Part shown: positions 5,350-63,743 of the stretch, in pieces
Layout of the letters: every line of letters starts with the position of its first letter
Numbering within the stretch: the stretch's first letter is position 1
Origin: an uncultured Pseudomonadales bacterium
Lineage (GTDB): Bacteria > Patescibacteriota > Microgenomatia > UBA1400 > PJMF01
Assembly: GCA_964625685.1 (NCBI GenBank)
Contig: CAZVBO010000003.1
Location: forward strand, 64,298 to 128,297
DNA: 64,000 nt
Direction of reading: 5' to 3'
The notes under the pieces: generated by a model
What the model saw: the letters and a program-made list of their open reading frames with translations, nothing else
Told to the model about the DNA's origin: nothing
Database searches by the model: none
Translations under genes and position numbers: made by a program

Positions 5350-5351
5350 TG

Positions 5352-7622: not shown

Positions 7623-7831
7623 ATTTATTAACTTTACTTATATGGCAATTTTACAATATAAAACCGGATATCCCAATTACAAAACGTGCTCTGCCTGCAG
7701 TGCTACCAATGCTACCAGCACCAGATAGCATTCAATCCTTCTGGACCCTGCAAACATGGTAAGACTGGCAACAAAAAGCCCCATCCATAAGATGAGGCCT
7801 TCATTAGCGTTTTTATAAAAAGAACTTGCTA

Positions 7832-8299: not shown

Positions 8300-8360
8300 C
8301 CTTTATTTGGTATTTCTATCTGGGTGGTTCCAATATTATCACAATCTTTCTATATATGGA

Positions 8361-8636: not shown

Positions 8637-8722
8637 ACTTCCTTTTTTTTGCTTCACTTTCGTGCTTTTTACTGGTAATCTGGTCTAACTCGTATTCAAA
8701 AAGTGTAAAAAAGTATCGAACC

Positions 8723-9769: not shown

Positions 9770-10003
9770 CCACTCTTTTCCCCTTTTGACCGCTCCCAGG
9801 TATGCAAAGCTAGACTTGCTCTACTTATTAAATACGTGGAGCACAAGTGGAAGACAATAATCTTCAAGCTATAACATCCCTTAGATCCCAACTTGATTCC
9901 AATGAGGAAGAAATTGTTGCAGGATCGTTTCATTCACTCGCAGAGCTCCTCTTGTCTTTTGTCAATAGATTAGAAGAACAAGAAAAAAGAAAGGAGCATT
10001 CAA

Positions 10004-10291
10004 GTGAAAAACATCAGTGAAATTGAGCTCATCCCTATAAGAGCCATAAATGGCCTTACTTTCTTCGCAAACTTTGTAATTGACCATGATTTTTATGTAG
10101 GCAATGTTGCCGTTTTTACAAAAAGAGACGGAACAGGTTTCCGCTGTGTTTACCCAACCAAAAAACTAAAAAATGGTTCTGAGGTTCCTATTTTTTACCC
10201 AATCAACTATGAAGTTGGACAACAAATTGAAGAAGCAATAACACAAAAAGCATATGAGCTCCTTATGCCAGAGGAAGGAGAGCTTATGTAA
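10004..10291 (+). CDS. Hypothetical small protein (95 aa)
   Basis: GTG start with an AAAGGAG RBS 9 nt upstream. Confidence 0.4.
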   Translation: MKNISEIELIPIRAINGLTFFANFVIDHDFYVGNVAVFTKRDGTGFRCVYPTKKLKNGSEVPIFYPINYEVGQQIEEAITQKAYELLMPEEGELM

Positions 10292-10339
10292 AAAATATTT
10301 TCAACCCAATCTTAGTTACAAATTACACAAAGGAAAAAT

Positions 10340-10726
10340 ATGTCATCAAAAAACATGACCCTAACCGTAAAAACAACCAGTGCTCCTGAGCCAATACCAA
10401 CAGGCGTATATCAGGCAAAGCTATCAGATCTTGAAAAGAGCGAAGGTGACTTTGGTCCCTACCTCAAACTCACGTTTCTCATTACTGACGGTGAGCACAA
10501 GGATACCGAGAGGACCACCATCGCCAGTATGAAACTCAGCACAGGTGCTAAGAATACCAAGCTCTACGATATCGTAGCCGCACTCATGGGTAAGTCACCT
10601 GAAACAAGTACTGAGATTGACCTGGGTGCTTTGGTAGGTAAACCCTGCCAGATACTGGTCAAAGATAAGCCTGGTGATAAAGATGGCTGGCAAATTATTT
10701 CAGAAGTAATGCCAGCAAGTAAATAA
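10340..10726 (+). CDS. Hypothetical protein (128 aa)
   Basis: AAAGGAAAAAT ATG ribosome-binding-site context. No family recognised. Confidence 0.4.
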   Translation: MSSKNMTLTVKTTSAPEPIPTGVYQAKLSDLEKSEGDFGPYLKLTFLITDGEHKDTERTTIASMKLSTGAKNTKLYDIVAALMGKSPETSTEIDLGALVGKPCQILVKDKPGDKDGWQIISEVMPASK

Positions 10727-10741
10727 AACGAAAGCAGGAGG

Positions 10742-15040: not shown

Positions 15041-15112
15041 GCACTCAACAATCAGCGATAGAACTTTTTTAATGGCCGTCTTGGACAACCGAAGTTCTTT
15101 CGCGTTGAGTGC
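15041..15112 (+). repeat. Imperfect inverted repeat (GCACTCAAC...GATAGAAC / GTTCTTTCG...GTTGAGTGC) around a ~29-bp core, immediately upstream of the serine recombinase gene; candidate recombination (att) site
   Basis: Arms 15041-15064 and 15094-15112 seen directly in the sequence. The position mirrors attP-next-to-int layouts of large serine recombinase elements. Confidence 0.35.
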
Positions 15113-15138
15113 ACCAGGGCGGCCATTTAAGTATAAGG

Positions 15139-16786: not shown

Positions 16787-17902
16787 TCAATTGAACTTCT
16801 TAGAGTTCTTCTTATTTATTGGGGTAATCGCACCAAGTGAAGATTCTTCATCGGGAGTAGATACATTTCTATAAAACTTCTTCGCTTCTGAATTAAATTT
16901 TTCTACCATATTTCTCATCCTTGAGTTCTCGGCAACCTTACCTTTAATTTCAATTACACGAGCATTTTCTAGGAACCTAGTCATCTGATCCAGCTTAGAA
17001 AAGAATGAGTCAGCCGTTTCCGGCCTATCTCGAGCAACAACTTCCTTTGCTGCTGGGATAGCCTCTTCAGGAGATTCATCAAGAAATACCTTTCTCGCAG
17101 GTTTACACCTCAAAATATCAGCTAAGTCTTTCCTCACGTCATAAGCAGCTGAACGAACTCTCCCAGCTAATACCCATTTAATAAACTTTTCATCAGTTAA
17201 TAAATCTGGACTTTCTTTCTTGATTTTTTGCAAATCGGCACTGCGACAATATTCATAAAAGATGCTAAATTTTTTAATCTCAGCCTCTTTATCATCAATC
17301 TTGGAAATATTGGGGAGATACCTATCTCGCATTAACTCATAGGCGGCAATTTGGGTCCGTAAGGAACTAACATTCATTCCAACTATTTGGGAGATTTCCT
17401 GAAGACTCATCCCATTCTCATCGCTCATTTTATAAATATAGCTAGCTTTTTCGTATGGATCCCATTGTGTTTTCCCCTCAATATGAAGTTTTCCCAACAG
17501 TAAAAAGAGATCTCTAACGTCTATTTCTTGAAGCAGCCTTTTTGCCCGAATCTTTCTCCATTTGTTCTTTTGTCCTTCCGGAGCATTCTTATACAAGTGC
17601 CTATAAGCACAAAGCCTTGTATTACCCTCAACAGCTTGTCCATTTAGCACTAATATTTCTTCAAGTAGCCCTCCATTTATTCTTATGTCTTCAGCTAAGT
17701 CTTTTGTTGAGTCCAACGCCCATAAACTCTTTTCAATAAGATCTTGTCCAAGGTCTTTGCCGTATTTACTTAAAACATAGTTTATTCTTGGATTTTCCGG
17801 ATAATAATCGAGTTGGAAGATATCTATTTCCTCAGTACTAACTGGGATCTTTTTATTCCCTATCGTCATGAAAGAAGTGGCTTGTTTATCTGGCATATCC
17901 AT
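16787..17902 (-). CDS. ParB/Srx-fold N-terminal domain protein with a C-terminal HTH-like region (ParB-like 1)
   Basis: ParB box-like motifs YYPENPR and GGLLEEILVL...EGNTRLCA. Shares the WDPYEKASY[IL] motif with the paralog at 19714-20730. Its start is 3 nt after the SNF2 stop. Confidence 0.55.
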   Translation of the reverse strand: MDMPDKQATSFMTIGNKKIPVSTEEIDIFQLDYYPENPRINYVLSKYGKDLGQDLIEKSLWALDSTKDLAEDIRINGGLLEEILVLNGQAVEGNTRLCAYRHLYKNAPEGQKNKWRKIRAKRLLQEIDVRDLFLLLGKLHIEGKTQWDPYEKASYIYKMSDENGMSLQEISQIVGMNVSSLRTQIAAYELMRDRYLPNISKIDDKEAEIKKFSIFYEYCRSADLQKIKKESPDLLTDEKFIKWVLAGRVRSAAYDVRKDLADILRCKPARKVFLDESPEEAIPAAKEVVARDRPETADSFFSKLDQMTRFLENARVIEIKGKVAENSRMRNMVEKFNSEAKKFYRNVSTPDEESSLGAITPINKKNSKKFN

Positions 17903-17905
17903 ATT

Positions 17906-19318
17906 TTAATTCAATAACTCAATTATTTCCTCTTTTGTTAAATAATTATCATGATTTATTTCTAGTGAATCACCCTGAATTACTCTAGCAACATCTTGTT
18001 TTTTCGCTAATCTGTCTTCAACAAATAGATCGATTGAGTCAGAACAAAGAAGCTTAATAATCCGGCAACGTTTCTCCTGTGAGATTCTATGTATTCTGTC
18101 CTGAGATTGTAGATAATCGACCAAGTTAAAAGATCGATCAAGGTAAATGGCATTATTAGCGGCGGTGAGGGTCAACCCTTCCCTTGCTGCAGAAGGGTTG
18201 GCAACCATAACCTTATATTCAGGATCCTCCTGAAAAGATTTAATATATTTATTTCTCCGAGCAATCTCAACTCCACCATAAATATTAAGAGATCCATACT
18301 TACGGTATCTAGACTTTAGTCCTTTGACATTGTCAACAAATGAGGACCATATAATTACCTTTTCTCCGCTGTGAACAATTTCCTTAACCAATTTATCTAG
18401 AGCAGTAAATTTTGCAGGAGTTTCCTTATAGTCCTTCACAACCAAACCTGGGTTACTAGATATTTGAACTAAGCGTAGAAGCTTTTTTAATATTGATTTG
18501 GCTTCATCAACAATTTTTTCTTCAGGAGTATTGATTATTTCAATGAGTAGTTCTTTTTTGAGTTTCTCATATATTTCGGATTGTTTGGGTGCCATGTCAA
18601 CCACAATCTGCTCATACACTTTCTCTGGAAGCTCAAGAACATTTTCCTTTAAACGTCTTATCGATATCGGGGATATTTTTTTCTGTAATTCTAAATAAAG
18701 ATCCGTTGAACCTTTATCCAAGTTCCCATACCGTTTTTTAAATACCTTAAAATCTTTCCCAAGACTTTCTCCTTTATCGAGAAAATAAAACTGTGCCCAA
18801 ATATCCGTTGGTTTGTTTGCTACAGGCGTACCGCTCAGAATATATCTCCTGGTGGCCAATTTAGATAAACCATTAATTGCTTCAAAGGTTTGGCTCTCTG
18901 GATTCTTAATCCTCTGTGACTCATCAAGAACAACCACAAATTTTTGAGACTCTAGAAGTAACTCAACAATCTCCAATTCCGCTTTAACACCCTCATAATT
19001 AAGAATAAAAATATTCGCAGAAGTAAGAAATCTGTATCCCTTTGATCTGCCACTGCCAGTAATTACAGCTGGAACTAAAAAACTGTGTTTCTTAATTTCA
19101 GACTGCCAGGTATACATTAACGTTTTTGGACAAACGATTAATGCGGCGTCTGTTTTTTTAGTCTTTAACAAAGAAATTATTGTATCTATGACTTCCTTGG
19201 TCTTACCGACCCCTTGTTCATCAAAAAGAGCTGCGTTTGGTTTGGAAACAAGAAAATTTATAGCTTCAAGCTGATGAGGGAAAGGTTGTGTTTTCTTCCT
19301 AAGGTAGTTTTTAGTCAT
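17906..19318 (-). CDS. SNF2-family (SF2) helicase/ATPase
   Basis: Motif I DEQGVGKT, motif II VVLDESQRIKN, motif III LSGTPVANKP and motif VI QSQDRIHRISQ. Start taken at MTKNYLRK, 2 nt after the upstream stop. Confidence 0.8.
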   Translation of the reverse strand: MTKNYLRKKTQPFPHQLEAINFLVSKPNAALFDEQGVGKTKEVIDTIISLLKTKKTDAALIVCPKTLMYTWQSEIKKHSFLVPAVITGSGRSKGYRFLTSANIFILNYEGVKAELEIVELLLESQKFVVVLDESQRIKNPESQTFEAINGLSKLATRRYILSGTPVANKPTDIWAQFYFLDKGESLGKDFKVFKKRYGNLDKGSTDLYLELQKKISPISIRRLKENVLELPEKVYEQIVVDMAPKQSEIYEKLKKELLIEIINTPEEKIVDEAKSILKKLLRLVQISSNPGLVVKDYKETPAKFTALDKLVKEIVHSGEKVIIWSSFVDNVKGLKSRYRKYGSLNIYGGVEIARRNKYIKSFQEDPEYKVMVANPSAAREGLTLTAANNAIYLDRSFNLVDYLQSQDRIHRISQEKRCRIIKLLCSDSIDLFVEDRLAKKQDVARVIQGDSLEINHDNYLTKEEIIELLN

Positions 19319-19319
19319 A

Positions 19320-19712
19320 TTATTCTGGTAGCAACCTATCGGGGATTGGCAGCAATAGTATGTTTCCATCCTGGGAGACCCCACCTACTAAACCCTGAAT
19401 CCGATTTTCTGCTGAGATTGGAAAACCCAAATATATTTTTAAATCAGTAATTACATCTTTTTGCGCAGATATAAAATCCTCCAGCTGTTCATGGGTTCTT
19501 GTACCAAAATCATCAGCGGTTTTTGCTTCTCCGATTGCCAAGCTACCTGACTTCATACCAATGAGATCCGGGCGGTGCCTCTTTATTTTTGGTGGTAATG
19601 ATATCTTTTGCTCATTTTCTGAATAACCCTCAAAGGAGATAACCTCATAGCCGTCAAGGATCATTTTCCTAGCTACTAGCTCGGCTATAAACTGATGCGC
19701 TTTTGAAGCCAT
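19320..19712 (-). CDS. Small protein (130 aa) with a PD-(D/E)xK-like motif; candidate nuclease
   Basis: RPDLIGMKSGSLAIGEAKT fits the PD...E-x-K pattern. Tightly coupled on both sides: 1-nt gap upstream, 2-nt gap downstream. Confidence 0.35.
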   Translation of the reverse strand: MASKAHQFIAELVARKMILDGYEVISFEGYSENEQKISLPPKIKRHRPDLIGMKSGSLAIGEAKTADDFGTRTHEQLEDFISAQKDVITDLKIYLGFPISAENRIQGLVGGVSQDGNILLLPIPDRLLPE

Positions 19713-19713
19713 A

Positions 19714-20730
19714 TTATTTCAATACGGATTGAGCAGTTATTATTAGCTGTTCAATCTTCGCTTTCTTGGCAGGTTCCTCTTCTCTTATTTGCGTTACCTC
19801 ATAATGTCTTAAATGCTTAAGTTGTTCAGTTACCTTTTCTATATCTCTAAATAGTGGCGAGACAACATCAGGTTTAACTGAGGCAAGTAAATCCATCGCT
19901 TCGTCATACCCTTTTTTCTTGAAGACTTCTGCAACTTCATCACTAGAAAAAATTTCTGGTAAATCACGAACGTCAATTGCTCGTGGTATTTTTTCTTCAG
20001 CAACCCATCGACAATAATCGTCTATAGAAAACTCACCAGAACGCAGTAAATTCCTTACCTTCTGCTTTCCAACCAACTCGACAAAATAACTGTACTTTTC
20101 TAAAGGATTGTCAACATCTTCTCCGTAATGAGGTAGGAAGTTGTCCCTCATAACTTCAAATGCCTTGATATCATGTTTGATTTCTGTCTCACTAGATCGA
20201 GCTTCTCTGGCTAATCTTTCCGTTGTGTATCCATTCTCCTTTAAATTAAATAGATAACGGGCTCTTTCATAGGGATCCCAAGCTTGCTTTCCTCCCAGGT
20301 GATATTCAAGTCTGAGAAAAGCAATTGTCTCCTGTGGTGTAGTGGAAGGTAAAACCCTAGCTTTAATTGTCTTCCATTCTTCTTTGTGGGGGTATTTGCG
20401 TGAAAGATCTTCAAACACTAGCCTGCGAGTGTTTCCCTCGATAACAATGTATTCATCACGCTGTTGGACAACCCAAATAGGTTCTAAAAGTCCTTTTGTC
20501 TCAATCGATTCCTTAAGAGAGTCATACTTGGCTTTTGTCTTAACCTTCAAGCCAAGCATAAGTTGTTTTTGAGTAACGTCTTTTTGCTTAACCCCCTTGG
20601 AAATATAGCTATCAATCAAAAACTGAATTCTTGGGTTATCAACATCGAGAAATACTTTATCAATGGGAATTTCTTGAGAAGGTACACTCCCTATTAGTTC
20701 TGATGATAGCTTTTGTTTCTTCATATTCAT
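19714..20730 (-). CDS. ParB/Srx-fold N-terminal domain protein (ParB-like 2)
   Basis: IDKVFLDVDNPR, GLLEPIWVV...YIVIEGNTRRLV, and the WDPYERARYLF motif shared with ParB-like 1. Confidence 0.55.
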   Translation of the reverse strand: MNMKKQKLSSELIGSVPSQEIPIDKVFLDVDNPRIQFLIDSYISKGVKQKDVTQKQLMLGLKVKTKAKYDSLKESIETKGLLEPIWVVQQRDEYIVIEGNTRRLVFEDLSRKYPHKEEWKTIKARVLPSTTPQETIAFLRLEYHLGGKQAWDPYERARYLFNLKENGYTTERLAREARSSETEIKHDIKAFEVMRDNFLPHYGEDVDNPLEKYSYFVELVGKQKVRNLLRSGEFSIDDYCRWVAEEKIPRAIDVRDLPEIFSSDEVAEVFKKKGYDEAMDLLASVKPDVVSPLFRDIEKVTEQLKHLRHYEVTQIREEEPAKKAKIEQLIITAQSVLK

Positions 20731-20739
20731 GATTGATTA

Positions 20740-21591
20740 TCATTTCGAATTGTTATTGAAAATCATAATTTCTTCAACAACTCTTCTTTTGCTTGTAAAA
20801 CCAGCAATGCTTCTTCTGACGGAGACCGTTTTAAAATTGAATCCTTCCTTTAGTAAATCAGCTTCTTCGGACTCAGCATAACTTACAACAAACTGGATTC
20901 CCTTTTTATCGAGTCTGTCCATCCATTTCTTGAGGCACATTATATCATTCATTCCGAATATTGACTTGTCGTATTTGTTAAATATTTTTTTTGATCTCAC
21001 ACTAAAAGGAGGATCCATATAAACAAAGTCACCTTTACGAACTTTTTTCAAGGTTTCTTCAAAACCATTTGAGTGCAATTCAGCATTTTTTAACAATTTT
21101 GCCGCAGTGAAGAAAACCTCGTCTGTGGGCATAACACCCTTATCATCACCACAATACGGAACATTAAATTCTCCTTTACTGTTTGTTCTATACAACCCAT
21201 TGAAACAAAATCTGTTTAAGTAGATAAACCTTGCAGCTCTTTTATTCGGAGACAGTTTGTCGGGCTTTAACGCTCGAATTTTATAGTAATCCTCTTTGCT
21301 TTTATTCAGCTTCTTTATCGCTTTTAGGACAGAGCCAGTATCATTTGAAATCTGTCTATAGGTAGTAATTAATTCTTCATTAATGTCACTCAACAACGCT
21401 TTTTTAGGAGCCAGGCTAAAAAATAAACAGGCTGAGCCAACAAATGGTTCAACGTACCTATTAAAGTCATCACTCCAAAATTCAGATAAAACAGGAATGA
21501 GTTGTCGTTTACTTCCAGCCCATCTTAAAAAGGGCTGAGCAACACTAGTGGTTTTATTATTTTTTTTCATATTTAAACACCAACTAGACAC
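20740..21591 (-). CDS. DNA N6-adenine methyltransferase, Dam/T4Dam family
   Basis: N-terminal FLRWAGSKR, motif I EPFVGSACLFF and motif IV DPPF. Start at either 21591 or 21570. Confidence 0.8.
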   Translation of the reverse strand: MSSWCLNMKKNNKTTSVAQPFLRWAGSKRQLIPVLSEFWSDDFNRYVEPFVGSACLFFSLAPKKALLSDINEELITTYRQISNDTGSVLKAIKKLNKSKEDYYKIRALKPDKLSPNKRAARFIYLNRFCFNGLYRTNSKGEFNVPYCGDDKGVMPTDEVFFTAAKLLKNAELHSNGFEETLKKVRKGDFVYMDPPFSVRSKKIFNKYDKSIFGMNDIMCLKKWMDRLDKKGIQFVVSYAESEEADLLKEGFNFKTVSVRRSIAGFTSKRRVVEEIMIFNNNSK

Positions 21592-21807
21592 TATGTTAAT
21601 TCAGTATACGATAGCGGATCACCTTTGGCGATCCTCATTGTTCTTTAGCAACTGTGACCGATTACGACCGCTTTTGTGGGACGTTTGTTACTTGGTTGGA
21701 CTAGTTATACCCTGGAAACAAAGTCTGGAGAATTTTAAGGCATTCATTGAAGACTAATAGCAACAATCTTTAACGTTAACCCAATCAATAGGGGGAAAGG
21801 TATCAAG

Positions 21808-22629
21808 CTATATACTGTGTTTTTCCTCAATGTAATGCCCTGCCAGATTATCATCTCTTGAAGTCCAGGTTATTGTGGATTTTGTCTTAAGATAAAGCTC
21901 GTGGGCCAGGCTAATGAATTTTTTGTGCCGAGTGGACAGTTTTCCTTTTCGAAATTGTTTCTCATGATATTTGCCCCAACCTCTGACAGCCCAATTTGCC
22001 GCAATCTTACTATCAGTCTTAACTTCAGTTGGTTTGCCCTCAGAAAAACCTCTTAAACAGGCAATGATGCCCAATATTTCACCTTCGTTGTTCGAAAAAT
22101 CGCCAATCCACTTTTCCATAAGAATGGTGCCTTCTTCATCACAGACAACGACAATTGTTTGTTGCCGCCCCTTTTGTCCATTGTTTTTTGTACCCGCATC
22201 ACAAAACAATATCTTTTGGGGTGTTGGTTTAGGATTAGCCTTTTTGGAAGTAGGCGTGTTATCAACTGCGCCGGGGATGGAGACAGAGATGTTTGACTTC
22301 AGTTTTCCCTTATTTTGTTGAAGCTCGGCCGCAATACGAAAAGCCACTTCTTTTCCAACTTCTTTGATAAATGCTTTCGAAGGCTTCCAAGTTATATTTA
22401 AGCCAGGCTGATAAGTCGTGGCATGTGTTCCGCATTTTTTGCATTTTACCCACAAACCTTTAGTTAGACTGCTAAGAGTGTAATATCCCTCACAAAGAGT
22501 AGAACAACGCTCACATCTTACTTTTTCGAAAGCATCATTGTTATCTTCTTGGTCAAATAGTCCGGCTGATTTCATATTTTTAGAATTTCTACTCAATTCT
22601 GATGATACAGAAAAACTGATTTCTATCAT
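21808..22629 (-). CDS. Zinc-ribbon plus RNase H-like domain protein
   Basis: N-terminal CERC...CKKC ribbon. C-terminal RNase H-like acidic residues: FCDAG, EGEILGII, KTDSK and RDDNLAGH. Confidence 0.5.
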   Translation of the reverse strand: MIEISFSVSSELSRNSKNMKSAGLFDQEDNNDAFEKVRCERCSTLCEGYYTLSSLTKGLWVKCKKCGTHATTYQPGLNITWKPSKAFIKEVGKEVAFRIAAELQQNKGKLKSNISVSIPGAVDNTPTSKKANPKPTPQKILFCDAGTKNNGQKGRQQTIVVVCDEEGTILMEKWIGDFSNNEGEILGIIACLRGFSEGKPTEVKTDSKIAANWAVRGWGKYHEKQFRKGKLSTRHKKFISLAHELYLKTKSTITWTSRDDNLAGHYIEEKHSI

Positions 22630-22843
22630 AGTTGACCATCATAGAAAATCTTAGTTGAGAGTTTTTGCCGGATTACCGGTATTTTTCACTCAATTTTCTA
22701 CTTGCGATTGCTGACAAACACGAGCCCTGAGCCACTGTGGCCGCTTTTGTGAGGCTTTCCGACCTCACCTGGCAGTTGTTTGGGGGTCTCAACAAATAAA
22801 ACGCCCGTTTGGGGAGTTGTTGGAGAAATTCAAACAAATATTA

Positions 22844-23455
22844 TCAATCACCATGAAGATAAACCACTGCACCGACAATTTTATCATCCATCACGTAAGG
22901 AACAATAACTTCCGCCTCTGAGTAAAGGTCGTTAAGATATGTCATTCTCAGCCCATTAACATTAGCTTGTAAGCCATAAAGCTTGTCCCTCTTACCCAAC
23001 AGGATATCTTTTATCAAAGCTTCTTTGCGCGTCTCAATTGACGTGGTGATAACACCGCCTGAGAAGAACAGCTTTACAATTCGGTCCTGATCCAAGGTAA
23101 TAAAATACATGGGTTGATTATTGGCTAAACTCACATCGCTGAAGTATCCGGGAACGTCTATGGTAGAGGACTCAGATGCGGTAGCTTCTGTTAATAAATC
23201 CAATCTGGATCTAATGTCTGCCACACATTCAGCATTCCCATTGCATTCAACTGCTTCCGGCAGTATCTTGGTAAAAACTTCATCAAAGAACTGTGGATTC
23301 TCCCGCATTAACTCGGAAACCTGAGCGCTTCTGAGTGTATAGACCCCCTTACCACTCTCATACAAACGCCAAGATACGAAGGCAAGTCCAACAAGTACTA
23401 AAACAATAAGAGCAGTAGCAATACCTAAAAGAGGTTTAGTGAAACGTTTTTTCAT
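22844..23455 (-). CDS. Hypothetical membrane-anchored protein (203 aa)
   Basis: N-terminal TM helix. No family recognised. Confidence 0.4.
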   Translation of the reverse strand: MKKRFTKPLLGIATALIVLVLVGLAFVSWRLYESGKGVYTLRSAQVSELMRENPQFFDEVFTKILPEAVECNGNAECVADIRSRLDLLTEATASESSTIDVPGYFSDVSLANNQPMYFITLDQDRIVKLFFSGGVITTSIETRKEALIKDILLGKRDKLYGLQANVNGLRMTYLNDLYSEAEVIVPYVMDDKIVGAVVYLHGD

Positions 23456-23472
23456 ACTGACTTAATTTTAGC

Positions 23473-24465
23473 TTAAAGCTTCTCGATCTCCCAGCCATCA
23501 TTGTCATAAACAATCACCTGGCCACCTTGAGTGATGGTAAGGCTAACGGTTGGGTAGCGGGTGTTTTTGATTGAAGCACACCAGACACCATCGTCTCGTT
23601 GATAGGCAGTTTCAAGAGTCTGGTCCGTGTCTCCACATTGCTCATACTCTTCCGTGTGAGGATCCTCGTAATCAACCCACCTGACAAAGAAGTTGCCAGG
23701 TTTAGTACCTTGAAACTCATAAGTCATCTGAGCGATATCAACACCCAGAATATCCTGATGATCTTTCATAAACTTTTCTGCCACCGGCCGGATGGCTTCG
23801 GCAGTAGTGTAGCGGGGAGTATTGTCATATTCTGGCTGTGGATCAAACCAACGGGAATCATCATCATTAGTACCCCATCTGCGCTCAGCCTCTCCAACTT
23901 CAACAATGTAGTTGGTGTTGGGATCAACAGTAAAGCCAAACCCACCAGCTGAGTAATGTTCTGAAGCAGGACTGGAATAATCGGTCCCAGTATCATCGGG
24001 ATTGCCATTAAAGCGACTACACAAAAACTCAACCGGCATGTCAGAAGATCCTAGGAACTTCTGAATATTAGTCACTGCTTGTTCTCGCTCTTGTGCAGAG
24101 CGGGCAGTCAACAAACAAAACTTCTCTCGGGCTTCTTTATAAACCTGCGTATCCTTATTAGGGTTTTCCTCCATTACTGCCAGCAATTCTGAGATTTCTG
24201 TAGCCTTTTTTAACTCAGAGGATTGATCACCCAAAAGAAGCCTAACTGAGTCATTAAACGACAACTTATCAAAACAACCAGTGAAGTAATTCCATTTATC
24301 ACCCTCCATCTGAGTTGTGATCGGGAACTGCATATGGGTTTGGGCAAGACAATACCGCTCCTTCGCACCTTTGACACGCAGTACACCAATAAACAGAAGT
24401 ATCGAGAGAATAAACAGCACCCCGACAAGAGGTATAAGACGATTTTTAGATTTCTTCATTGTCAT
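23473..24465 (-). CDS. Hypothetical membrane-anchored protein (330 aa)
   Basis: N-terminal TM helix. No family recognised. Confidence 0.4.
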   Translation of the reverse strand: MTMKKSKNRLIPLVGVLFILSILLFIGVLRVKGAKERYCLAQTHMQFPITTQMEGDKWNYFTGCFDKLSFNDSVRLLLGDQSSELKKATEISELLAVMEENPNKDTQVYKEAREKFCLLTARSAQEREQAVTNIQKFLGSSDMPVEFLCSRFNGNPDDTGTDYSSPASEHYSAGGFGFTVDPNTNYIVEVGEAERRWGTNDDDSRWFDPQPEYDNTPRYTTAEAIRPVAEKFMKDHQDILGVDIAQMTYEFQGTKPGNFFVRWVDYEDPHTEEYEQCGDTDQTLETAYQRDDGVWCASIKNTRYPTVSLTITQGGQVIVYDNDGWEIEKL

Positions 24466-24616
24466 AGTATGTTCCTTTCTCCAAAGTTTGCCGATGTTAG
24501 CTTCCTTTGCTGCTAAAAGTCAAGTTTCTGCCAACATCTGCTACCTGGCTAATTTTAGCATAAATGATGACAAGGAGTCCGTGTTAGATGTGACTGAGAG
24601 TCACTACCCTAGAGAC

Positions 24617-24844
24617 ATGGGTAAACCAATTTCACACCAACACATTCTTAAGAAGTTCGGAGCTAAATTGCAAAAGACCAGGAAAAGCAAAGGCGTAACG
24701 CAGGAAGAACTGGCGTTTAGGATGTCCATGGATCGGACTTATATCGGCATGATTGAGCGCGGTGAGCGCAATCCGACTATACGAACGCTCTACAAAATCG
24801 CCAAAGCGCTGAAAGTTGATTCTTCGGAATTGTTGCCGTTTTAA
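24617..24844 (+). CDS. XRE-family HTH transcriptional regulator
   Basis: KGVTQEELAFRMSMDRTYIGMIERGERNPTIRTLYKIAKAL. Start at MGKPISHQ. Confidence 0.65.
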   Translation: MGKPISHQHILKKFGAKLQKTRKSKGVTQEELAFRMSMDRTYIGMIERGERNPTIRTLYKIAKALKVDSSELLPF

Positions 24845-24923
24845 TTTTTTTCTTACACCTAAACCCATTTAATCCCCGCTTCATCTTGCGTGATGTAGAA
24901 TATAGCTAAACCCATTCAGGGTT

Positions 24924-48520: not shown

Positions 48521-48639
48521 CGAGAATTAAGTAAATACTTAGTTGCTTACATTAGTAAACATAAATCACCACAAAGTTTATTGAGATAAACATAAGACTC
48601 CCGCTAGGCTGGACATAGTTAATTCCAATTTGAATTTCT

Positions 48640-48894
48640 ATGTCACAGCCAAAACCTGCCACTTACCTTACCAGCGATCTTGCTCTCGCTACCACTATCT
48701 CCCTCAACTTTCCCATTGAAGATATTGATCGAACCAATCCGCGCAAAGCGGTTTTTGTGTTTCGCAGGTCTCCAGAACTAGAGGAGCTTGTTGATTCTTA
48801 CTTCTCCAATCAGCTTAAGGTCTCACCACAAGTCTTTTTCAACCAATTGCGCGATGTCAAAGCCAGATTATATGCGGAAAAACGACCATGGTAA
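48640..48894 (+). CDS. Hypothetical protein (84 aa)
   Basis: ORF only. Confidence 0.3.
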   Translation: MSQPKPATYLTSDLALATTISLNFPIEDIDRTNPRKAVFVFRRSPELEELVDSYFSNQLKVSPQVFFNQLRDVKARLYAEKRPW

Positions 48895-49059
48895 GCCGAC
48901 AACTATTACTCGAGCTGAAGAAAATTATTGAAGAAGACTATGGAATCAAATTGACCTTGGCCGAAGTGATGGAAGTAGCCACTACATTGGTGGACTTTGC
49001 AGAAACGGCCATGAAGATTGAAGCCAAGCCCGATACCTCATAAAGAGCTTGGTTAATAA

Positions 49060-49557
49060 ATGAAAATGAAAATGTCAAAACAACCACCAACAGACAACCT
49101 GTACCTCCAAATCTGGAGAAATCCTATCTTCAAGGAACTTCTTTTAGCGCAGGTAACAGCCGATCAATGGCATACTTTCACTGCTTTGGCAGTCTTCATG
49201 AACAAAAAGGGTGAGTGTTATCCCTCTCAAAACAGACTCAAACAAATTCTTGGTTTAAATAGCGTGGCCAGTGTAAGCAGAAGAATTATTTCTTTGGAGA
49301 AAGCCCGTTTCAAAGGCGAGCCTCTGATTACAGTCTTTCGAGATAAAAAGATGAAACGTAAAGGTAAATTCCTCTTTGCCAGCAATGGCTACCAACTCAA
49401 CCAAAACATCATCACTATCTTCGCTCCGCATGACACCACCGTCGCACGGAGACAACAACAAATGGAAGATTTTCAAGCAAACAAGGCTAATCTCGTCAAT
49501 AGATTGCACATCAATGCGTCACGGAAAGACGATAAACAAACTAGAAGGAGTTTTTAA
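49060..49557 (+). CDS. Winged-HTH protein of the phage/plasmid replication-initiator-associated type
   Basis: ...CYPSQNRLKQILGLNSVASVSRRIISLEKARF.... Confidence 0.4.
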   Translation: MKMKMSKQPPTDNLYLQIWRNPIFKELLLAQVTADQWHTFTALAVFMNKKGECYPSQNRLKQILGLNSVASVSRRIISLEKARFKGEPLITVFRDKKMKRKGKFLFASNGYQLNQNIITIFAPHDTTVARRQQQMEDFQANKANLVNRLHINASRKDDKQTRRSF

Positions 49558-49586
49558 CAAAAAATTTAACGAAAACAGCGCCGTTT

Positions 49587-50012
49587 ATGAAAGACAAATC
49601 AGTAGCAAAACCAACAGAAAAACTTATAAGGAAGATTGGTCAATTCTTGGTCAAAAATTGGTCGACTTTTCAGGGTGGGCAGCATGTGGGCAAAATGAGG
49701 GCAGATTTAGAGGAGTTTAAGGCTAAACAGGGTGTACAAAAGGTGGACAGAAATAGGACAGAAAACCTGCACCAACTCTTCGTCAAAACTGCGCCAACTA
49801 AGGTTCACCGGTGCTTCACTGAAACTTCACCGGATTTTGGAAGCTTTAGCCTAAAAACCCTTCGGTATGGTGACGGTGAAATGTCGGTGGTTTTTGACCC
49901 TTCATTTGTCCTGTTTCCGCGTATAGCCCAGTATATGCGGAAAGTCCTGATTCAATTTGATATTCCCTCGAGTTACCTATATGTTGTTGTGTTGAAAAGA
50001 GTCTGCCTATGA
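49587..50012 (+). CDS. Hypothetical protein (141 aa)
   Basis: ORF whose stop overlaps the recombinase start. Confidence 0.3.
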   Translation: MKDKSVAKPTEKLIRKIGQFLVKNWSTFQGGQHVGKMRADLEEFKAKQGVQKVDRNRTENLHQLFVKTAPTKVHRCFTETSPDFGSFSLKTLRYGDGEMSVVFDPSFVLFPRIAQYMRKVLIQFDIPSSYLYVVVLKRVCL

Positions 50013-51595
50013 AAAGCGTTATATTCTGCCGAGTCTCCAGCAAAGAACAAGAAGAAACGGGCTACTCCCTCCCGGCGCAGGAGAAGTTCCTGCGAGAATA
50101 TGGCGACAAGCAAGGCTTGGAGGTTAAAAAGGTCTTTGCCATCTCTGAGTCTGCAGCAGGCAAAAGCCAACGCAAGGTCTTTGAGGAAATGATCGCCTAT
50201 GTCAGAAAACAAAATATTTGTGCCATCATTGTCGAAACCACGGACCGTTTAACCCGTAACTTCTCTGATGTGCCCACCATCGACCTCTGGATCACCGAGA
50301 GTGAAGAACACCAAATCCACTTGGCCAAAGAAGCCTGCATCTTGCACAACTCTTCCCGCTCACACGAATGGTTTATGTGGCGAGTCAAAGTTGCTACCGC
50401 TGAATATTATGTCCGCCTGCTTTCCGAGAACGTTAAGAAGGGACAAAAAGAAAAACTGGCTCAGGGCTGGCTGCCAACCAGACCACCACTAGGATATAAA
50501 ACCGTTGGCGAAACCGGTCACAAGATCCACATTGTTGATGAAGGTGCTTCTAAACTAGTGATCAAGATGTTTGAACTTTATGCCTCCGGCGATTATTCCA
50601 TCAAGAAACTGGCCAACACCATGTATCAAGAAGGCATGAGATCTCCTCAGGGCAACAGGCTGGCCATCAGCCGAACTCACTCCCTACTGCGCGATCCTTT
50701 CTATATGGGTAAGATTAGATGGAATGATGAAATTTACGAAGGCAAACAAGAGCCATTAATCAGTAAAGAATTATTTGATAAGGTTCAGAAGTTACTTAAA
50801 AGCAAAACCACTCCCACTTATATGAAACACAGCTACTTATTCAAAGGCTTAATTCGCTGCACTACCTGCAAAGGGCTGATTACCTGGGAACTACACCGAG
50901 GTCATCGCTACGGACACTGCAACCACTACAACAAATGCCCTCAGAAAACATGGGTTAAGGAGCCTGGGACCGAAGAACAACTCTTGAGAGGATTTGAGAA
51001 TCTAAGAATTAAGAACAAACGAGTCACCGAATGGCTCAAAAAAGCACTCAAGGAAAGCCATCAGGACGAAGTCCAGTATCACAACAGCACTGTGGGCGAA
51101 CTAGAAACCCGCTATGAGGCGGTTAGTAGACGAATGGACAAGTTATACGATGACAAACTTGATGAAAAAATCACTCAGGAGTTTTATAACCGTAAGTTTA
51201 AGCAGTACTCCAAAGAAAAAGACGAACTCACCGAAACCATTAAACGCCACTCCACCGCCAGCACAGGTTATCTTAACCTAGGCATTAATCTATACGAACT
51301 CTCGCAACGAGCCAAAGAAATCTACCTCACTGCCAAAAAGAAGGACATGCTGGACGAACAACGCGCCCTTATCAGACTGGTATTCAAAAAGCTCATCTTA
51401 GACGAAGGCAAACTCAGCTGGGAGTACTCCCGAGCCTTTAAGATCCTGTCTGAGGCAGTAAGTCAGACAAATTGTTCTAAAGTGGAAAATTTGGAGGGTT
51501 TGGAAAAAGAAACTTTCGAACATCACGAAAAGAGCGATGTTACGGGACAAAAAGACTCTTTGTCGCCCTCTCATCCCATCTGGCTCCCCGAGTAG
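50009..51595 (+). CDS. Large serine recombinase (second copy)
   Basis: VIFCRVSSKEQ, resolvase domain, recombinase domain, zinc ribbon CTTCKG...HCNHYNKC, coiled coil. The last 15 nt overlap the tRNA-Asn 3' end. Confidence 0.85.
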   Translation: MKSVIFCRVSSKEQEETGYSLPAQEKFLREYGDKQGLEVKKVFAISESAAGKSQRKVFEEMIAYVRKQNICAIIVETTDRLTRNFSDVPTIDLWITESEEHQIHLAKEACILHNSSRSHEWFMWRVKVATAEYYVRLLSENVKKGQKEKLAQGWLPTRPPLGYKTVGETGHKIHIVDEGASKLVIKMFELYASGDYSIKKLANTMYQEGMRSPQGNRLAISRTHSLLRDPFYMGKIRWNDEIYEGKQEPLISKELFDKVQKLLKSKTTPTYMKHSYLFKGLIRCTTCKGLITWELHRGHRYGHCNHYNKCPQKTWVKEPGTEEQLLRGFENLRIKNKRVTEWLKKALKESHQDEVQYHNSTVGELETRYEAVSRRMDKLYDDKLDEKITQEFYNRKFKQYSKEKDELTETIKRHSTASTGYLNLGINLYELSQRAKEIYLTAKKKDMLDEQRALIRLVFKKLILDEGKLSWEYSRAFKILSEAVSQTNCSKVENLEGLEKETFEHHEKSDVTGQKDSLSPSHPIWLPE

Positions 51596-51655
51596 GATTC
51601 GAACCTACAACCTTGAAGTTAACAGCTTCCTGCTCTGCCATTGAGCTATCGGGGA
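51581..51655 (-). tRNA. tRNA-Asn (anticodon GTT), encoded CCA
   Basis: Manual cloverleaf. Acceptor UCCCCGA/UCGGGGA, D stem GCUC/GAGC, anticodon loop CU-GUU-AA, T arm GGUUCGAAUCC. Starts with U like E. coli tRNA-Asn. Confidence 0.75.
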
Positions 51656-51680
51656 TAGAACACTCATTCTATCGAATACT

Positions 51681-52001
51681 TTAACAGTTTCCTGCCCTGC
51701 CTCCTCCAGCTGGCGGAGAGCTATCGGGAAATTGTGCTAAATAATTTTTAAGGCAACTTTTAATAAATTCACGACCGCGATATGATTTTAGCTGTTTTTC
51801 TCTCTGTAAGCAGGATACTCTATCTCTACACATTTCATGATATATGAGTATCCACTTTCCATCATATCTACTTGTATATGAATTTTTAAAAGTATGATTG
51901 TTGTGTAATTTTAATCTATTTTCTAAATCCTGTGTTTGACCAATATATAGTTTTTTATGATTTAAATTATATATTGCGTATACACAATAATTCATACACA
52001 T
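51681..52001 (-). CDS. GIY-YIG nuclease domain protein; its 3' end reads through the tRNA-like fragment
   Basis: VYAIYN...KLYIGQT and downstream R/E residues. 106 aa. Confidence 0.55.
   Translation of the reverse strand: MCMNYCVYAIYNLNHKKLYIGQTQDLENRLKLHNNHTFKNSYTSRYDGKWILIYHEMCRDRVSCLQREKQLKSYRGREFIKSCLKNYLAQFPDSSPPAGGGRAGNC
51683..51721 (-). other. Degenerate duplicate of the tRNA-Asn 5' half (pseudo-tRNA fragment / att-like remnant)
   Basis: The reverse complement TTCCCGATAGCTC...CAGGGCAGGAAACTGTT matches the tRNA 5' half TCCCCGATAGCTC...CAGAGCAGGAAGCTGTT, with the D-loop replaced. Confidence 0.45.
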
Positions 52002-57865: not shown

Positions 57866-57932
57866 AGTCCCCTTTTCCTAAAAGGGGCATCAAGTCAGGC
57901 ACTTCAAAGTGCATGACCTGATGGGGCATTTA
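57866..57932. repeat. Structured element Y, copy A (CCCCTTTTCCTAAAAGGGG hairpin, then CATCAAGT...ACCTGATGGGGCATTT)
   Basis: The second copy at 60813-60866 has conserved flanks and a variable middle. Confidence 0.5.
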
Positions 57933-58288: not shown

Positions 58289-58328
58289 AGCCTCCTTATT
58301 AATATTTAATGATTAATGTCTAATGTCT
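58289..58328. repeat. Heptad (TAATGnn / CAnTAAy)n tract immediately upstream of trxA
   Basis: TTAATGATTAATGTCTAATGTCTAATGTCTAAC, 7-bp periodicity. Related tracts at 58428-58458, 60575-60624, 60780-60808, 60988-61019 and 63680-63715. Confidence 0.6.
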
Positions 58329-58458
58329 AATGTCTAACACTGGATTGTCATTCCCGCGAAGGCGGGAATCCATACTTATTTAACTTGCCCTAGATTCTGA
58401 GTTAAACTCAGGATGACAGTTAAACTGTAAACATTAACCAATAATCATTAGTCACTAA

Positions 58459-58789: not shown

Positions 58790-60571
58790 TTAGTTTTTGC
58801 GTTTTAATAACACAATTTGTTTTAATAGCTCAGATTGGCGAGCTTCTTCTTGAGGAGTTTTTTCAGCCTTAGCATCCAGCTGATCCAGTTCATGAGTGAT
58901 CTGAGCCACTGCTTCTGCCACTGAGAGCGCCTTCAAATCTTTGAGGGTGTTATCCCACTCTTTCTCGAGGTCTAATTCATCGACAATTTCAATATAGTCA
59001 GGCTGAAGATAAACTTCAGACACCAACTGTTGTTGATCTTCTGGCAGTTGCTTCATAAACTGGGTCAAATCAAAGCTACTAGACTGCTTTTCTAAAGTTT
59101 GAACCAGTGGTTTGACACCTATTTTTTTCCATCGCAAATTTTTTAGTTCAGATACTCGATGAGTCTCAAACGGCATTCGAAAGAATAAGAAGAGAATATA
59201 ACTTTCCAGTCTTTCCCGGCGAGTTTGAGGCTGGTCTTTTTCCACTGGTTCAACTGAAGTAGCAGCTTTTTTAGAACTAGCAAAAAGCGTCGTTTTATCT
59301 TTAAAGGTGTCAATATCTTTCCGCACCACTTCATCTTTGACTCCCAAAACTTGAGCCAACTTTTTAATGTAAAAATCTTGTTCCACCGCATGAGGAATAC
59401 TGCCAAAGATAGGTGCTAACTCATCAATGATTTGCCGTTTTCCTTCTGGAGTTTGGGTGCCATATTGATTGACTGCATTTTGCAAAAAGAATTCGTAGAC
59501 CGAGACAGAAGTTTTGGTGGCTTCTCGCCACGCTTTCGGATCAGTTTTGGCTAGCTCATCCGGATCTTTACCTGAGGGTAACTTCAAAACTCGTAGCTCA
59601 ATTTCAAACTCGCGAGCTAAAGTAATGGCTCTCTTGGTTGCTTCTCGGCCAGCACTATCCATGTCGAGACTTAACAATACTTTTTTGACCGTTCGCCGCA
59701 GTAACTGCAATTGTTCTCGAGTCAAAGCCGAACCTTTAATCGCTACAATCTGATTCACATGCGCCTGAGTCGAGGAAATAACATCTAGTTCTCCCTCAGC
59801 CACAATTACTTCCTGAGCTTGACGAATGTGCTGGTAGAGCTGAGAGTAGCCAAACAACAATTCTGACTTGTGATACAGCATCGTTTCCGGACTATTAATA
59901 TACTTAGCTTCTTTAACATCTTTTTTCAAAGTCCGACCAGAAAAGCCAACAATTTGCCCTCGAGCATTAGTCAGTGGAAACATGACTCGATCTCGAAATC
60001 GATCGTAATACCGACCATTTCGGCCTTTAATAATCAAACCAGCCGCTTCTAAATCAGCTAAACTATACTTTTTCTTTTGATGCAAGTATTTAATTAAGCC
60101 ATCCCAACCAGGCAAAGCATACCCCATCTGGAAAATTTTGATCGATTCTTTGACAATTCCCCGTTGATGGAGATACTCCCGGGCTGGTTCACCTGCCGGG
60201 TGAGTGGTTAGTAGATAGTGATAGTATTCTTTGGTTAAATCTAAAATATCCAGCAGTCGTTCTCTTTGTTCGTCCTGAGGAGTAGCTTGATAGTCTTTGA
60301 GCTCAATCCCGGCCCGATCAGCTAAATACTTCAAACTTTCGTAAAAGCTCATCCCTTCATACTTTTCTAAAAAGTTAAATACATCACCTGATTCTCCACA
60401 GCCAAAACAGCGATAGCGTTGGAGCTGTTCATTCACAAAAAAAGAGGGTGACTTTTCACTATGAAAAGGACACAATCCTTTGTAATTGACTCCAGATCGT
60501 TTGAGTTCAACTCGCTCCCCAATGATCTGGACGATATCGCTGGCATCTTTGACTTGTTTGGCTTGGGACAT
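58790..60571 (-). CDS. dnaG: DNA primase
   Basis: Zinc-binding CPFHSEKSPSF...CFGCGESGD and TOPRIM EGELDVIS...DMDSAG. 593 aa. Confidence 0.9.
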   Translation of the reverse strand: MSQAKQVKDASDIVQIIGERVELKRSGVNYKGLCPFHSEKSPSFFVNEQLQRYRCFGCGESGDVFNFLEKYEGMSFYESLKYLADRAGIELKDYQATPQDEQRERLLDILDLTKEYYHYLLTTHPAGEPAREYLHQRGIVKESIKIFQMGYALPGWDGLIKYLHQKKKYSLADLEAAGLIIKGRNGRYYDRFRDRVMFPLTNARGQIVGFSGRTLKKDVKEAKYINSPETMLYHKSELLFGYSQLYQHIRQAQEVIVAEGELDVISSTQAHVNQIVAIKGSALTREQLQLLRRTVKKVLLSLDMDSAGREATKRAITLAREFEIELRVLKLPSGKDPDELAKTDPKAWREATKTSVSVYEFFLQNAVNQYGTQTPEGKRQIIDELAPIFGSIPHAVEQDFYIKKLAQVLGVKDEVVRKDIDTFKDKTTLFASSKKAATSVEPVEKDQPQTRRERLESYILFLFFRMPFETHRVSELKNLRWKKIGVKPLVQTLEKQSSSFDLTQFMKQLPEDQQQLVSEVYLQPDYIEIVDELDLEKEWDNTLKDLKALSVAEAVAQITHELDQLDAKAEKTPQEEARQSELLKQIVLLKRKN

Positions 60572-60574
60572 GGT

Positions 60575-60624
60575 TTAATGATTAATGTTTATTGGTTATT
60601 GATTATTGATTATTGTTTAATTTC
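60575..60624. repeat. Heptad (CAATAAT-like)n tract abutting the dnaG start codon
   Basis: Gene-sense ATTAAACAATAATCAATAATCAATAACCAATAAACATTAATCATTAAACC-ATG. No Shine-Dalgarno sequence. Confidence 0.6.
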
Positions 60625-61033
60625 ACAATCTCAAGATGTTAGTTTTTTTCCCTTAACTTGGAATTTGCCTGCCTGCGCAGACAGGTTTGGATTTTGGAAT
60701 TTGGAATTTATAGCCTCATTATCAAGTATACCTTATTTCTTGCAACTAACAATCAAAACCCGAATGGAAAAGCAAGTGATTAGTGTCTAATGTTTAATGG
60801 TTAATGACAAATCCCCTTTTTCTAAAAGGGGCATCAAGTGAGTGAAACGAACCTGATGGGGCATTTCAGTAATGGCTTAAACACCTCTGTCTCGCTATCG
60901 CTAGACTTCTCCTCTTTGATAAGAGGAGATTTTCTATTTATTCTTCGCATACCATTCACAACTGACACGAAATACTGGCACTAATCACTAACCAATAAAC
61001 AATAACCATTCGCTTCCCTGTTATAATGAAGGT

Positions 61034-63249: not shown

Positions 63250-63687
63250 TTAGCTCATATTCTGGCCAGACAAAAAGCCAAACCAATTAGTACCGTCAGG
63301 AGAGAAAAAACCAATAACATCAATCGCCCCTATTGCGGTTGAGAGAGTAGGATCATTGCCATTATCCCATTTCACTTCTGAAGGCCAGGTGATAGTATAA
63401 CTACCAGAACCACCTTGTTTCACAACTACAGTCAGTGATTGTCCAGCCACAGCAGTGGGGAAAGTAAGAGTACAATTTTGAGTTAGAGTTAAATAATGAA
63501 TTCCAGCACTGGTTGGTGCTGGCAGAGTATAAGAAGCACCTGCATCTGATTGAGTATTCACGACATCAGTAACAAGTCCAGTGGAAAGACCATGGGTTCC
63601 ATCTGAGTTATGCTCAACTTCCAGAAACTCATTTAAAACTGTTCCCCAGTTGCCATCATCTCCATTTACGGTTGGTAGTCTTGCCAT
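63250..63687 (-). CDS. Hypothetical protein (145 aa), possible surface or structural partner of the SGNH protein
   Basis: ORF 5 nt upstream of the SGNH gene. Gly/Thr-rich. Confidence 0.35.
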   Translation of the reverse strand: MARLPTVNGDDGNWGTVLNEFLEVEHNSDGTHGLSTGLVTDVVNTQSDAGASYTLPAPTSAGIHYLTLTQNCTLTFPTAVAGQSLTVVVKQGGSGSYTITWPSEVKWDNGNDPTLSTAIGAIDVIGFFSPDGTNWFGFLSGQNMS

Positions 63688-63743
63688 ACTTTAATGATTA
63701 TTGGCTAATGGTTAATGGTTAATCCTACCAATGCTGATAGGAT

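Follow-up and report, generated by a model that had tools for sequence, protein, structure and literature searches.

Two unrelated mobile elements appear to occupy one tRNA-Asn gene of a Patescibacteria genome, a serine-integrase island at its 3′ end and a palindrome/GIY-YIG cassette at its 5′ end

The staphylococcal cassette SCCmec inserts at the extreme 3′ end of rlmH and leaves this conserved gene intact. In the SSV1-type archaeal integrases, and in the mycobacteriophage integration-dependent immunity systems of Broussard et al. 2013, integration reportedly splits a coding sequence. The concept of a gene-internal attP, or of integration dependence, is also mentioned in PMC4929511. Serine integrases are said not to specify tRNA genes (PMC4383910), and among Prochlorococcus tycheposons and cryptic elements 27 of 937 have a large serine recombinase (LSR; 10.1101/2020.12.28.424599). 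T4 SegB is a free-standing GIY-YIG homing endonuclease in a tRNA gene cluster (PMC2330249). Here we describe a 64,000-nt stretch of DNA from an uncultured Patescibacteria bacterium (contig CAZVBO010000003.1, positions 64,298 to 128,297; the whole stretch is referred to as the window), in which we consider, with a probability of about 0.8, that two unrelated selfish elements have reached the same tRNA-Asn gene from opposite ends: an island with a serine integrase, LSR2, at the 3′ end and a cassette composed of a palindrome and a GIY-YIG nuclease gene at the 5′ end. Our literature search found no report of serine integrases of candidate phyla radiation (CPR) bacteria at tRNA-Asn, nor of the palindrome.

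The single tRNA that ARAGORN detects in the window is tRNA-Asn(GTT) (51581-51655, minus strand). Rfam scores it at 67.2 bits against a threshold of 29 and returns this tRNA alone, with no match to the group I intron model in the window. The gene is intact and would constitute the B half of an attachment site. LSR2 (50009-51595, plus strand) runs into its 3′ end from the opposite strand and is a large serine integrase of 528 amino acids ending in HPIWLPE, which we take to be the integrated, C-terminally truncated form. It matches Resolvase (PF00239, 1.2e-19) and Recombinase (PF07508, 3e-16) in Pfam and the integrase family PHROG 95 (1.4e-69), and in an alignment of 31 sequences R8, the catalytic Ser10 and further catalytic-domain residues are invariant, as are C284, C287, C304 and C310. 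An AlphaFold model of a full-length LSR2 homologue (mean predicted local distance difference test score (pLDDT) 82.8) has the standard integrase architecture of ribbon and long coiled coil, and Foldseek aligns it with solved serine integrases (9dxh, 9rah, 9iu2 and 4kis) at E values of 1e-17 to 1e-11; the sequence similarity of LSR2 to PDB entries is confined to the catalytic domain. LSR2 thus combines a serine catalytic domain, a recombinase domain with zinc ribbon and coiled coil, and short att sites, as expected of a large serine recombinase, and it scores far under the NCBIfam cut-offs for CcrB and XisF and so belongs to neither equivalog. The initial annotation had placed the end of the LSR2 open reading frame (ORF) 15 nt inside a minus-strand tRNA-Asn(GTT), and both the tRNA call and this overlap hold: the last LSR2 codons, TGG CTC CCC GAG TAG, are the antisense of the final 15 nt of the tRNA (CTACTCGGGGAGCCA). 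The junction of LSR2, tRNA and GIY-YIG gene was also recovered in separate Logan assemblies (SRR136170xx contigs L001 and L087-L092).

A genome scan found relatives of LSR2 in 328 GTDB species genomes, and 80 of the relatives' loci were fetched; the locus counts given here rest on 80 entries, comprising 79 fetched related loci and the present window. A protein search returned 1646 relatives (54-95% identity among the best 120 listed), and those with source names come from Patescibacteria. The relatives share a common end, ...CCCATCTGGCTC, and diverge immediately after it. The integrase gene ends to the base at the 3′ end of a minus-strand tRNA-Asn in 38 of the 80 entries and of a tRNA-Gln in 6, and in about 15 a T-arm follows the integrase but ARAGORN calls no tRNA, 12 of these having an anticodon loop that is interrupted by a group I intron according to Rfam; overall about 60 of the 80 run on into tRNA-Asn, tRNA-Gln or an intron-bearing tRNA. 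Integrases that are 94-97% identical to LSR2 have four different continuations past TGGCTC (tRNA, intron-bearing tRNA, tail and other), and such divergence after the shared ...CCCATCTGGCTC is the signature of site-specific recombination at that point. At the protein level, most relatives end in RPIWL followed by peptides such as PREDSNLEP, the antisense of the tRNA acceptor stem and T-arm (GAT TCG AAC in the antisense T-arm translates as D-S-N), a minority end in a conserved tail, W-D-D-F-R-T..W...YPE....Q..LL, and a few have other tails. Similarity between related loci ends at the tRNA, and the flank past it, which contains rpoD, is host synteny regardless of which integrase is present.

Both ends of the element can be seen in 11 loci with paired junctions, in which the strand of the integrase gene also carries, 6.7-10.9 kb upstream of that gene, a tail remnant with a preceding NNGCTC; the junction between integrase and tRNA likewise has NNGCTC. 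In 10 of these 11 two-ended elements GCTC is the sole sequence common to both junctions. This motif is the antisense of tRNA G71-A72-G73-C74, and the remaining CCA would therefore come from the element; tRNA-Asn and tRNA-Gln have this A72-G73 end in common. LSR2 is accordingly best read as a tRNA-targeting integrase, a role that had been proposed from the window sequence as unusual for the family and that agrees with the relatives' tRNA junctions and, as to its rarity, with the statement in PMC4383910. We infer that crossover takes place within GCTC, at tRNA positions 71-74. In the window, the predicted attR (51540-51586, plus strand) consists of the P arm and the core TGGCTC (51581-51586), which corresponds to tRNA G71-A76. 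The putative attP would lie inside the integrase ORF, such that integration would cut off the conserved tail of about 30 amino acids; with the crossover in the ORF, the free and integrated forms encode different C-termini.

The four arms of the attachment sites differ in conservation. Across 10 elements, mean pairwise identity is 74% for the B arm (tRNA), 56% for P, 47% for P′ and 29% for B′, the chromosomal arm beyond the tRNA. Because the latter is unrelated between hosts, the integrase probably reads mainly the tRNA half-site, which would account for the phylum-wide host range and for the stacking of new elements next to the tRNA. The similarity of the tRNAs does not track that of the integrases.

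The far end of the island is marked by the sole tail-coding segment of the window, 16672-16767. This matches L006 11573-11668 at 98% identity; the L006 segment is the tail of an intact 557-amino-acid LSR that is itself 94% identical to LSR2, and joining 50009-51586 to 16678-16773 yields a 557-amino-acid protein that is collinear with the L006 LSR and 93.7% identical to it. The tail segment at this position and the restored LSR2 together define the island as 16672-51586 (plus strand; 34.9 kb). Its left junction (16672-16773, plus strand) comprises the core TGGCTC (16672-16677) and the P′ arm that encodes the detached LSR2 tail (EKWYEFGKIDWVSELEYPEWTVKEVGRFLQY, followed by a stop), as established by the L006 match. 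The initial annotation had two recombinases in the same orientation, one of them at 15.1 kb, bracketing a metal/thiol island. Both do delimit an island, but its left boundary is at 16672 rather than near 24 kb.

The recombinase on the left, LSR1 (15109-16773, plus strand; Pfam Resolvase, Recombinase and Zn_ribbon_recom), is likewise a large serine integrase, from a distant family, and the LSR2 tail segment is joined in frame to its coding sequence at 16672. LSR1 and LSR2 are 23% identical by BLASTP and have the same TGGCTC core. In a profile-free search over 1.84 billion cluster representatives, many LSRs that are 25-58% identical to LSR1 end in antisense-tRNA peptides (DSN, GFEPT, ESNPRP) or in tail-like peptides. 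One fragment shares 96% identity with the LSR1 C-terminus and ends in ISETWLPR, which means that this copy of LSR1 sits directly on a tRNA. We infer that the LSR1 element came first and that the LSR2 element later inserted between LSR1 and the tRNA, which would leave LSR1 as the older, tRNA-distal member of a tandem array. Like arrays occur in L006, L033 and L035.

In the mechanism we propose for the 3′ side, a Patescibacteria integrative element would insert through its LSR2, with an attP located within the integrase gene about 30 codons before the stop. Strand exchange in GCTC would leave the tRNA with its body, and the last bases, the CCA that is read as the Trp codon TGG, would be supplied by the element. 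The LSR2 ORF would then enter the tRNA and stop after four codons, and the detached tail-coding segment would end up 34.9 kb away at the other island end, fused there to the end of LSR1, the older integrase of a different family at the same site.

Several further observations were made on the related loci and on the integrase end. The group I introns (Rfam RF00028, 55-100 bits) lie after U35/U36, about 40-400 nt past the integrase end, in L002, L008, L013, L020, L023, L033, L035, L037, L052, L057, L063 and L075, and in L035 the exons are those of a tRNA-Asn; three kinds of element have thus invaded this one tRNA, namely the integrase element, the GIY-YIG cassette and the group I intron. LOOT RNA (RF03000, 68-79 bits) occurs 3-5 kb upstream of the integrase in related elements (L008 6896-7006, L023 8226-8336 and L025 7640-7750), and no LOOT RNA scores above threshold in the window. 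Some close integrase relatives are in bins labelled Bathyarchaeia, Methanoperedens, Methanodesulfokora, Nanoarchaeia and Gammaproteobacteria (L030, L043, L047 and L051, together with many 'uncultured Gammaproteobacteria' records), labels that probably reflect binning or labelling noise and not the true host range. Read in the tRNA direction, the final codons of LSR2 fold as a hairpin right after CCA (window 51540-51580), and in L003 and L004 11520-11575 a U-run follows that hairpin (GGGACGC...GCGUCC UUUUUU), by which the element seems to carry a tRNA terminator inside its coding sequence. An element-supplied terminator was considered and rejected: a clean hairpin with a U-run is present in L003 and L004, whereas the window has only a variant hairpin and the terminator scan was empty.

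We turn to the 5′ side of the tRNA. A partial copy of the tRNA 5′ half with an altered D-loop had been annotated about 30 nt beyond the tRNA; the copy and its altered D-loop are present, at 51681-51728 (minus strand) and separated from the tRNA by 25 nt. It contains tRNA positions 2-13, a palindrome and tRNA positions 18-38, in two collinear blocks at 51681-51701 (19 of 21 positions identical) and 51718-51728 (11 of 11). Between the blocks, in place of 3 D-loop bases, is a 16-nt near-palindrome (51702-51717; sense TCCGCCAGCTGGAGGA) that has one mismatch to the consensus TCCGCCAGCTGGCGGA. The copy's resemblance to the tRNA is above chance: its local alignment score is 32, whereas 60 shuffled versions of the 600-nt flank reach 25 at most (z = 6.7), and a 21-mer of the copy has a BLAST E value of 0.008 against the 64-kb window. 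The module does not behave as a stable RNA structure, its fold not being significant (z = -1.1). The GIY-YIG nuclease ORF (51681-52001, minus strand; 106 amino acids; Pfam PF01541, 4e-15) runs through the module, as had also been annotated, and its stop codon is the TAA in the anticodon loop of the copy. We found 92 close homologues of this ORF, and its relatives are typically 81-89 amino acids long and consist of the catalytic domain only. An acceptor-like segment in the window is one C short (TCCCGA versus TCCCCGA), and because of the missing base the usual TAG stop is out of frame and the ORF has 106 rather than about 85 codons.

This arrangement recurs widely. Collinear matches to the copy, palindrome included, are found in the modules of L055, L093, L094 and L095 and in 103 metagenome stretches, the latter identified by a scan of metagenomes for the palindrome; the figures that follow refer to 80 stretches fetched of the 103. 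The palindrome is preceded by TAGCTC(N) in 69, and in 55 a GIY-YIG ORF follows. In 50 of these 55 a tRNA comes next (39 Asn, 10 Lys and 1 Phe), and in 37 of the 50 loci the ORF stop is formed by tRNA U8-A9-G10. Thirteen of the 80 modules have no ORF and, like the one in the window, are followed at a short distance (12-80 nt) by an intact tRNA (Asn, Thr or Lys); their tRNA-derived parts match the downstream tRNA down to host-specific variants. Modules elsewhere end at tRNA positions 26 to 49, always with the D-loop palindrome. GIY-YIG ORFs adjoin the 5′ end of tRNA-Asn in L015, L027, L029, L032, L055, L067, L093 and L094, each with a hairpin-bearing 5′ copy upstream. Among the 38 intact tRNA-Asn sites of the integrase loci, the ORF is present at 6, the window included, and at none of the others; L067 is a further case with an atypical tRNA. 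There (1841-2217), a perfect 65-nt direct repeat surrounds the GIY-YIG ORF, and the downstream 79-nt tRNA (ARAGORN 'Stop(tta)') itself contains a palindrome, TCCGCCGCGGCGGA; this may be a freshly inserted or aberrant cassette.

The 5′ copy is thus most simply described as the 5′ module of a separate cassette. In its usual order, a module would be followed by a leader, a GIY-YIG gene of about 85 codons and the intact tRNA; the module would be a local duplicate of the 5′ part of the tRNA, with a near-invariant 16-nt palindrome in place of the D-loop, and the nuclease stop would be provided by tRNA U8-A9-G10. The 25-nt spacer in the window (51656-51680, minus strand; AGTATTCGATAGAATGAGTGTTCTA) resembles cassette leaders such as GTATAATCGAATTATG of L032. 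It is probably what remains of a second GIY-YIG ORF after deletion, namely its leader, ATG and final codons, given this likeness, the example of L173, which retains just the start and end of its ORF, and the 13 ORF-less modules of the same layout. Most likely, two successive cassettes lie in the window; of these, the second would have lost its ORF whereas the ORF of the first would read through the module after the one-base deletion. As an invader of tRNA genes, this cassette seems not to have been described before. Of the features of a GIY-YIG homing endonuclease, the protein has the catalytic domain and a sporadic presence at a conserved target, and a separate DNA-binding domain is absent. 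The cassette may move by nuclease-driven homing.

An obvious alternative for the 5′ copy, and the one favoured by the initial annotation, is that it is an attachment-site repeat left as a scar by the serine-recombinase element. A tRNA-fragment repeat is indeed the classical signature of tRNA-targeted islands (PMC4383910), and no more than 25 nt separate the copy from the tRNA next to the integrase. However, copy and element are on opposite sides of the tRNA (5′ and 3′, respectively), the integrase junctions share only GCTC, the true distal junction is at 16672, and the same module stands beside tRNA-Thr and tRNA-Lys and at integrase-less loci (L094 and L095), as befits a recurrent separate cassette. 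The best matches to a displaced 3′ tRNA fragment in the window are 9-11 nt, and the far end shares only TGGCTC, so that the island lacks the tRNA-fragment direct repeat of a classical one, just as both of its integrases are of the serine and not the tyrosine family. We regard a scar as contradicted by these findings and extremely improbable. That the copy is instead the relic 5′ exon of an intron-containing tRNA-Asn, with the GIY-YIG gene as the homing endonuclease of the intron, is suggested by the group I introns that split this tRNA in at least 12 related loci, by the end of the copy in the anticodon loop and by the prevalence of GIY-YIG proteins among intron endonucleases; the window protein reaches 24.7 bits with TIGR01453, under the 56-bit cut-off. 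This too is highly unlikely: the introns lie after U35/U36, whereas the copy extends to A38, Rfam finds no intron in the window, other modules end at 26 to 49 and always have the D-loop palindrome that exons lack, and the GIY-YIG ORF is outside the tRNA and not within an intron. On the 3′ side, the recombinase could lie beside the tRNA by chance, or the tRNA could be cargo of the element, with no integration at the tRNA at all, in keeping with the failure to recover an empty site or circular form from this strain. We consider this extremely improbable in view of the exact, single-base agreement between gene end and tRNA 3′ end at about 60 of 80 loci, the rpoD flank that is host synteny independent of the integrase with similarity stopping at the tRNA, and the 11 paired junctions with a detached tail.

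The status of the tail is less clear-cut. The ORF might merely read through the P′ half-site, in which case the tail would have no protein function and its loss on integration would be harmless; this is quite possible, if short of even odds. The 528-amino-acid integrated form retains all catalytic, DNA-binding and coiled-coil domains, the first 25 nt or so of the tail would be constrained as a DNA half-site anyway, and some relatives have short or different tails. Yet amino acids are conserved over about 30 codons, past the half-site, the tail is found also in the distant LSR1 family, and synonymous variation gives it a pairwise ratio of nonsynonymous to synonymous substitution (dN/dS) of about 0.31. 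In the homologue model the residues that the P arm and core encode (494-521) form a disordered linker, after which come three short helices (525-557) with a block-mean pLDDT of 62-79. On the grounds of the dN/dS and the predicted helices, the tail looks like a real protein segment that would be removed by integration. The same two observations provide the indirect basis for supposing that the change of product may alter regulation or activity. A more far-reaching proposal is possible but rather doubtful: the attP in the integrase gene would serve as a sensor of the integration state, with a full-length protein bearing the helical tail in the free element, a tail-less protein in the integrated one and, in arrays, truncation of only the tRNA-proximal integrase. 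Directionality, activity or stability might then be under the control of the tail, which would replace or complement a separate directionality factor, and the recognition of essentially one half-site, the acceptor/T-arm DNA of tRNA-Asn or tRNA-Gln, would confer the phylum-wide host range.

A number of points weigh against the two-element interpretation or parts of it. The comparators are all metagenome-assembled. The left junction of L006 (GATCTC TTCGAG) has no clean core match, and the conservation of the tail may in part be that of a DNA half-site. For the LSR1 element, neither tblastn with 35 tail peptides of three types nor inspection of every TGGCT at 5-11 kb gave a convincing left end. 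No excised circle or empty site was seen for this strain, neither rpoD nor LSR1 (the latter with two alternative starts) gave a match in exact look-ups, and the 16 whole-contig loci have no terminal overlaps indicative of a circular form. All nine contigs with the GIY-YIG gene of the window break 100-600 nt past that gene. A phage origin was rejected, IMG/VR containing only five distant relatives. Nuclease-driven homing of the cassette is made doubtful by the intact tRNA, which would stay a target of the nuclease, and by the lack of a DNA-binding domain in the protein. Canonical serine integrases are not known to recombine attP with a hybrid site (attL or attR), a rule with which the formation of tandem arrays is at odds; the unconstrained B′ arm suggests that these integrases rely on the tRNA half-site. 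As a separate observation, L089, among the Logan contigs L087-L092, breaks exactly at the tRNA 3′ end, that is, at the att core. Contig breaks past the GIY-YIG gene would fit population heterogeneity at the junction.

The length of the island reflects its cargo, which makes up the difference from related elements of 6.7-10.9 kb. Backbone modules common to elements of about 10 kb elsewhere occupy 22721-24848 and 48554-51586; the backbone is similar to those of L003, L006, L007, L005 and L009 and the cargo to that of L004. Informative PHROG matches in the backbone are limited to the integrase and one DNA-binding protein. By Pfam matches the cargo consists of a metal/thiol block (24.8-48.5 kb) and a helicase/methylase block (16.8-22.6 kb). 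Within the latter, 16787-22629 encodes two ParB-like/phrog_3694 proteins, an SNF2 helicase, a D12 adenine methyltransferase and an RNase H-like protein, and may be a defence or maintenance block. On the LSR1 side, 6187-13087 contains a SMODS nucleotidyltransferase beside a SLATT-like membrane protein (a pair resembling a cyclic-oligonucleotide-based antiphage signalling system, CBASS), an Ltp-type lipoprotein and a primase-polymerase. Further left, 3001-6000 has a GC content of 0.49-0.51, compared with about 0.40 elsewhere, and a class I Trp/Tyr-tRNA synthetase gene lies within it (4200-5240). The left end of the array, which was not detected, would be expected just to the right of this segment. 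Intergenic TAATG-rich repeat arrays (58300-58336, 60569-60619, 60774-60810 and 63685-63721) are present in the chromosomal flank, together with a 31-nt hairpin repeat in two copies that are 94% identical (57868-57898 and 60812-60842).

These integrases form a large clade, present in at least 328 species genomes, mostly of Patescibacteria, that systematically targets tRNA genes. Integrases that are 94-97% identical occur in bins of different CPR lineages, which points to recent horizontal transfer, and the element in the window carries a 24-kb metal/thiol-resistance cargo; recent transfer would concern a phylum thought to have few mobile elements. Removal by integration of the integrase's own conserved tail would be a possible new control principle in a family widely used in genome engineering, and an integrase that needs only a tRNA half-site, if this is true, could help with organisms without genetics, such as CPR bacteria.

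In comparison with described systems, LSR2 and its element are like PhiC31, Bxb1, A118/LI, SPbeta and CcrAB (SCCmec) in domain architecture and fold, in short att sites with a tiny core and in the position of the integrase at the element edge; as with SCCmec at rlmH, insertion is at the very 3′ end of a conserved gene that remains intact. Unlike the PhiC31-type serine integrases, they target a tRNA gene, the predicted attP in the integrase ORF would alter the enzyme's own C-terminus and the B′ arm is apparently unconstrained. With the Islander-type tyrosine islands and tycheposons they share an integrase next to an intact tRNA, the restoration of the tRNA 3′ end, tandem arrays and cargo such as metal resistance. 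They differ from Islander-type islands in using a serine recombinase and in leaving no displaced tRNA fragment, since crossover would occur at 71-74; with no tRNA-fragment repeat, such elements would be missed by Islander-type searches and other standard island finders. As in the SSV1-type and mycobacteriophage integration-dependent elements, the free and integrated states encode different proteins, but here the gene is that of a serine integrase and only its last 30 or so residues are removed. The cassette on the 5′ side resembles T4 SegB in being a GIY-YIG gene among tRNA genes with a sporadic distribution, and is unlike it in the size of its protein (about 85 amino acids), in lacking a DNA-binding domain, in its flanking tRNA 5′ duplicate with an invariant palindrome and in taking its stop from U8-A9-G10 of the tRNA.

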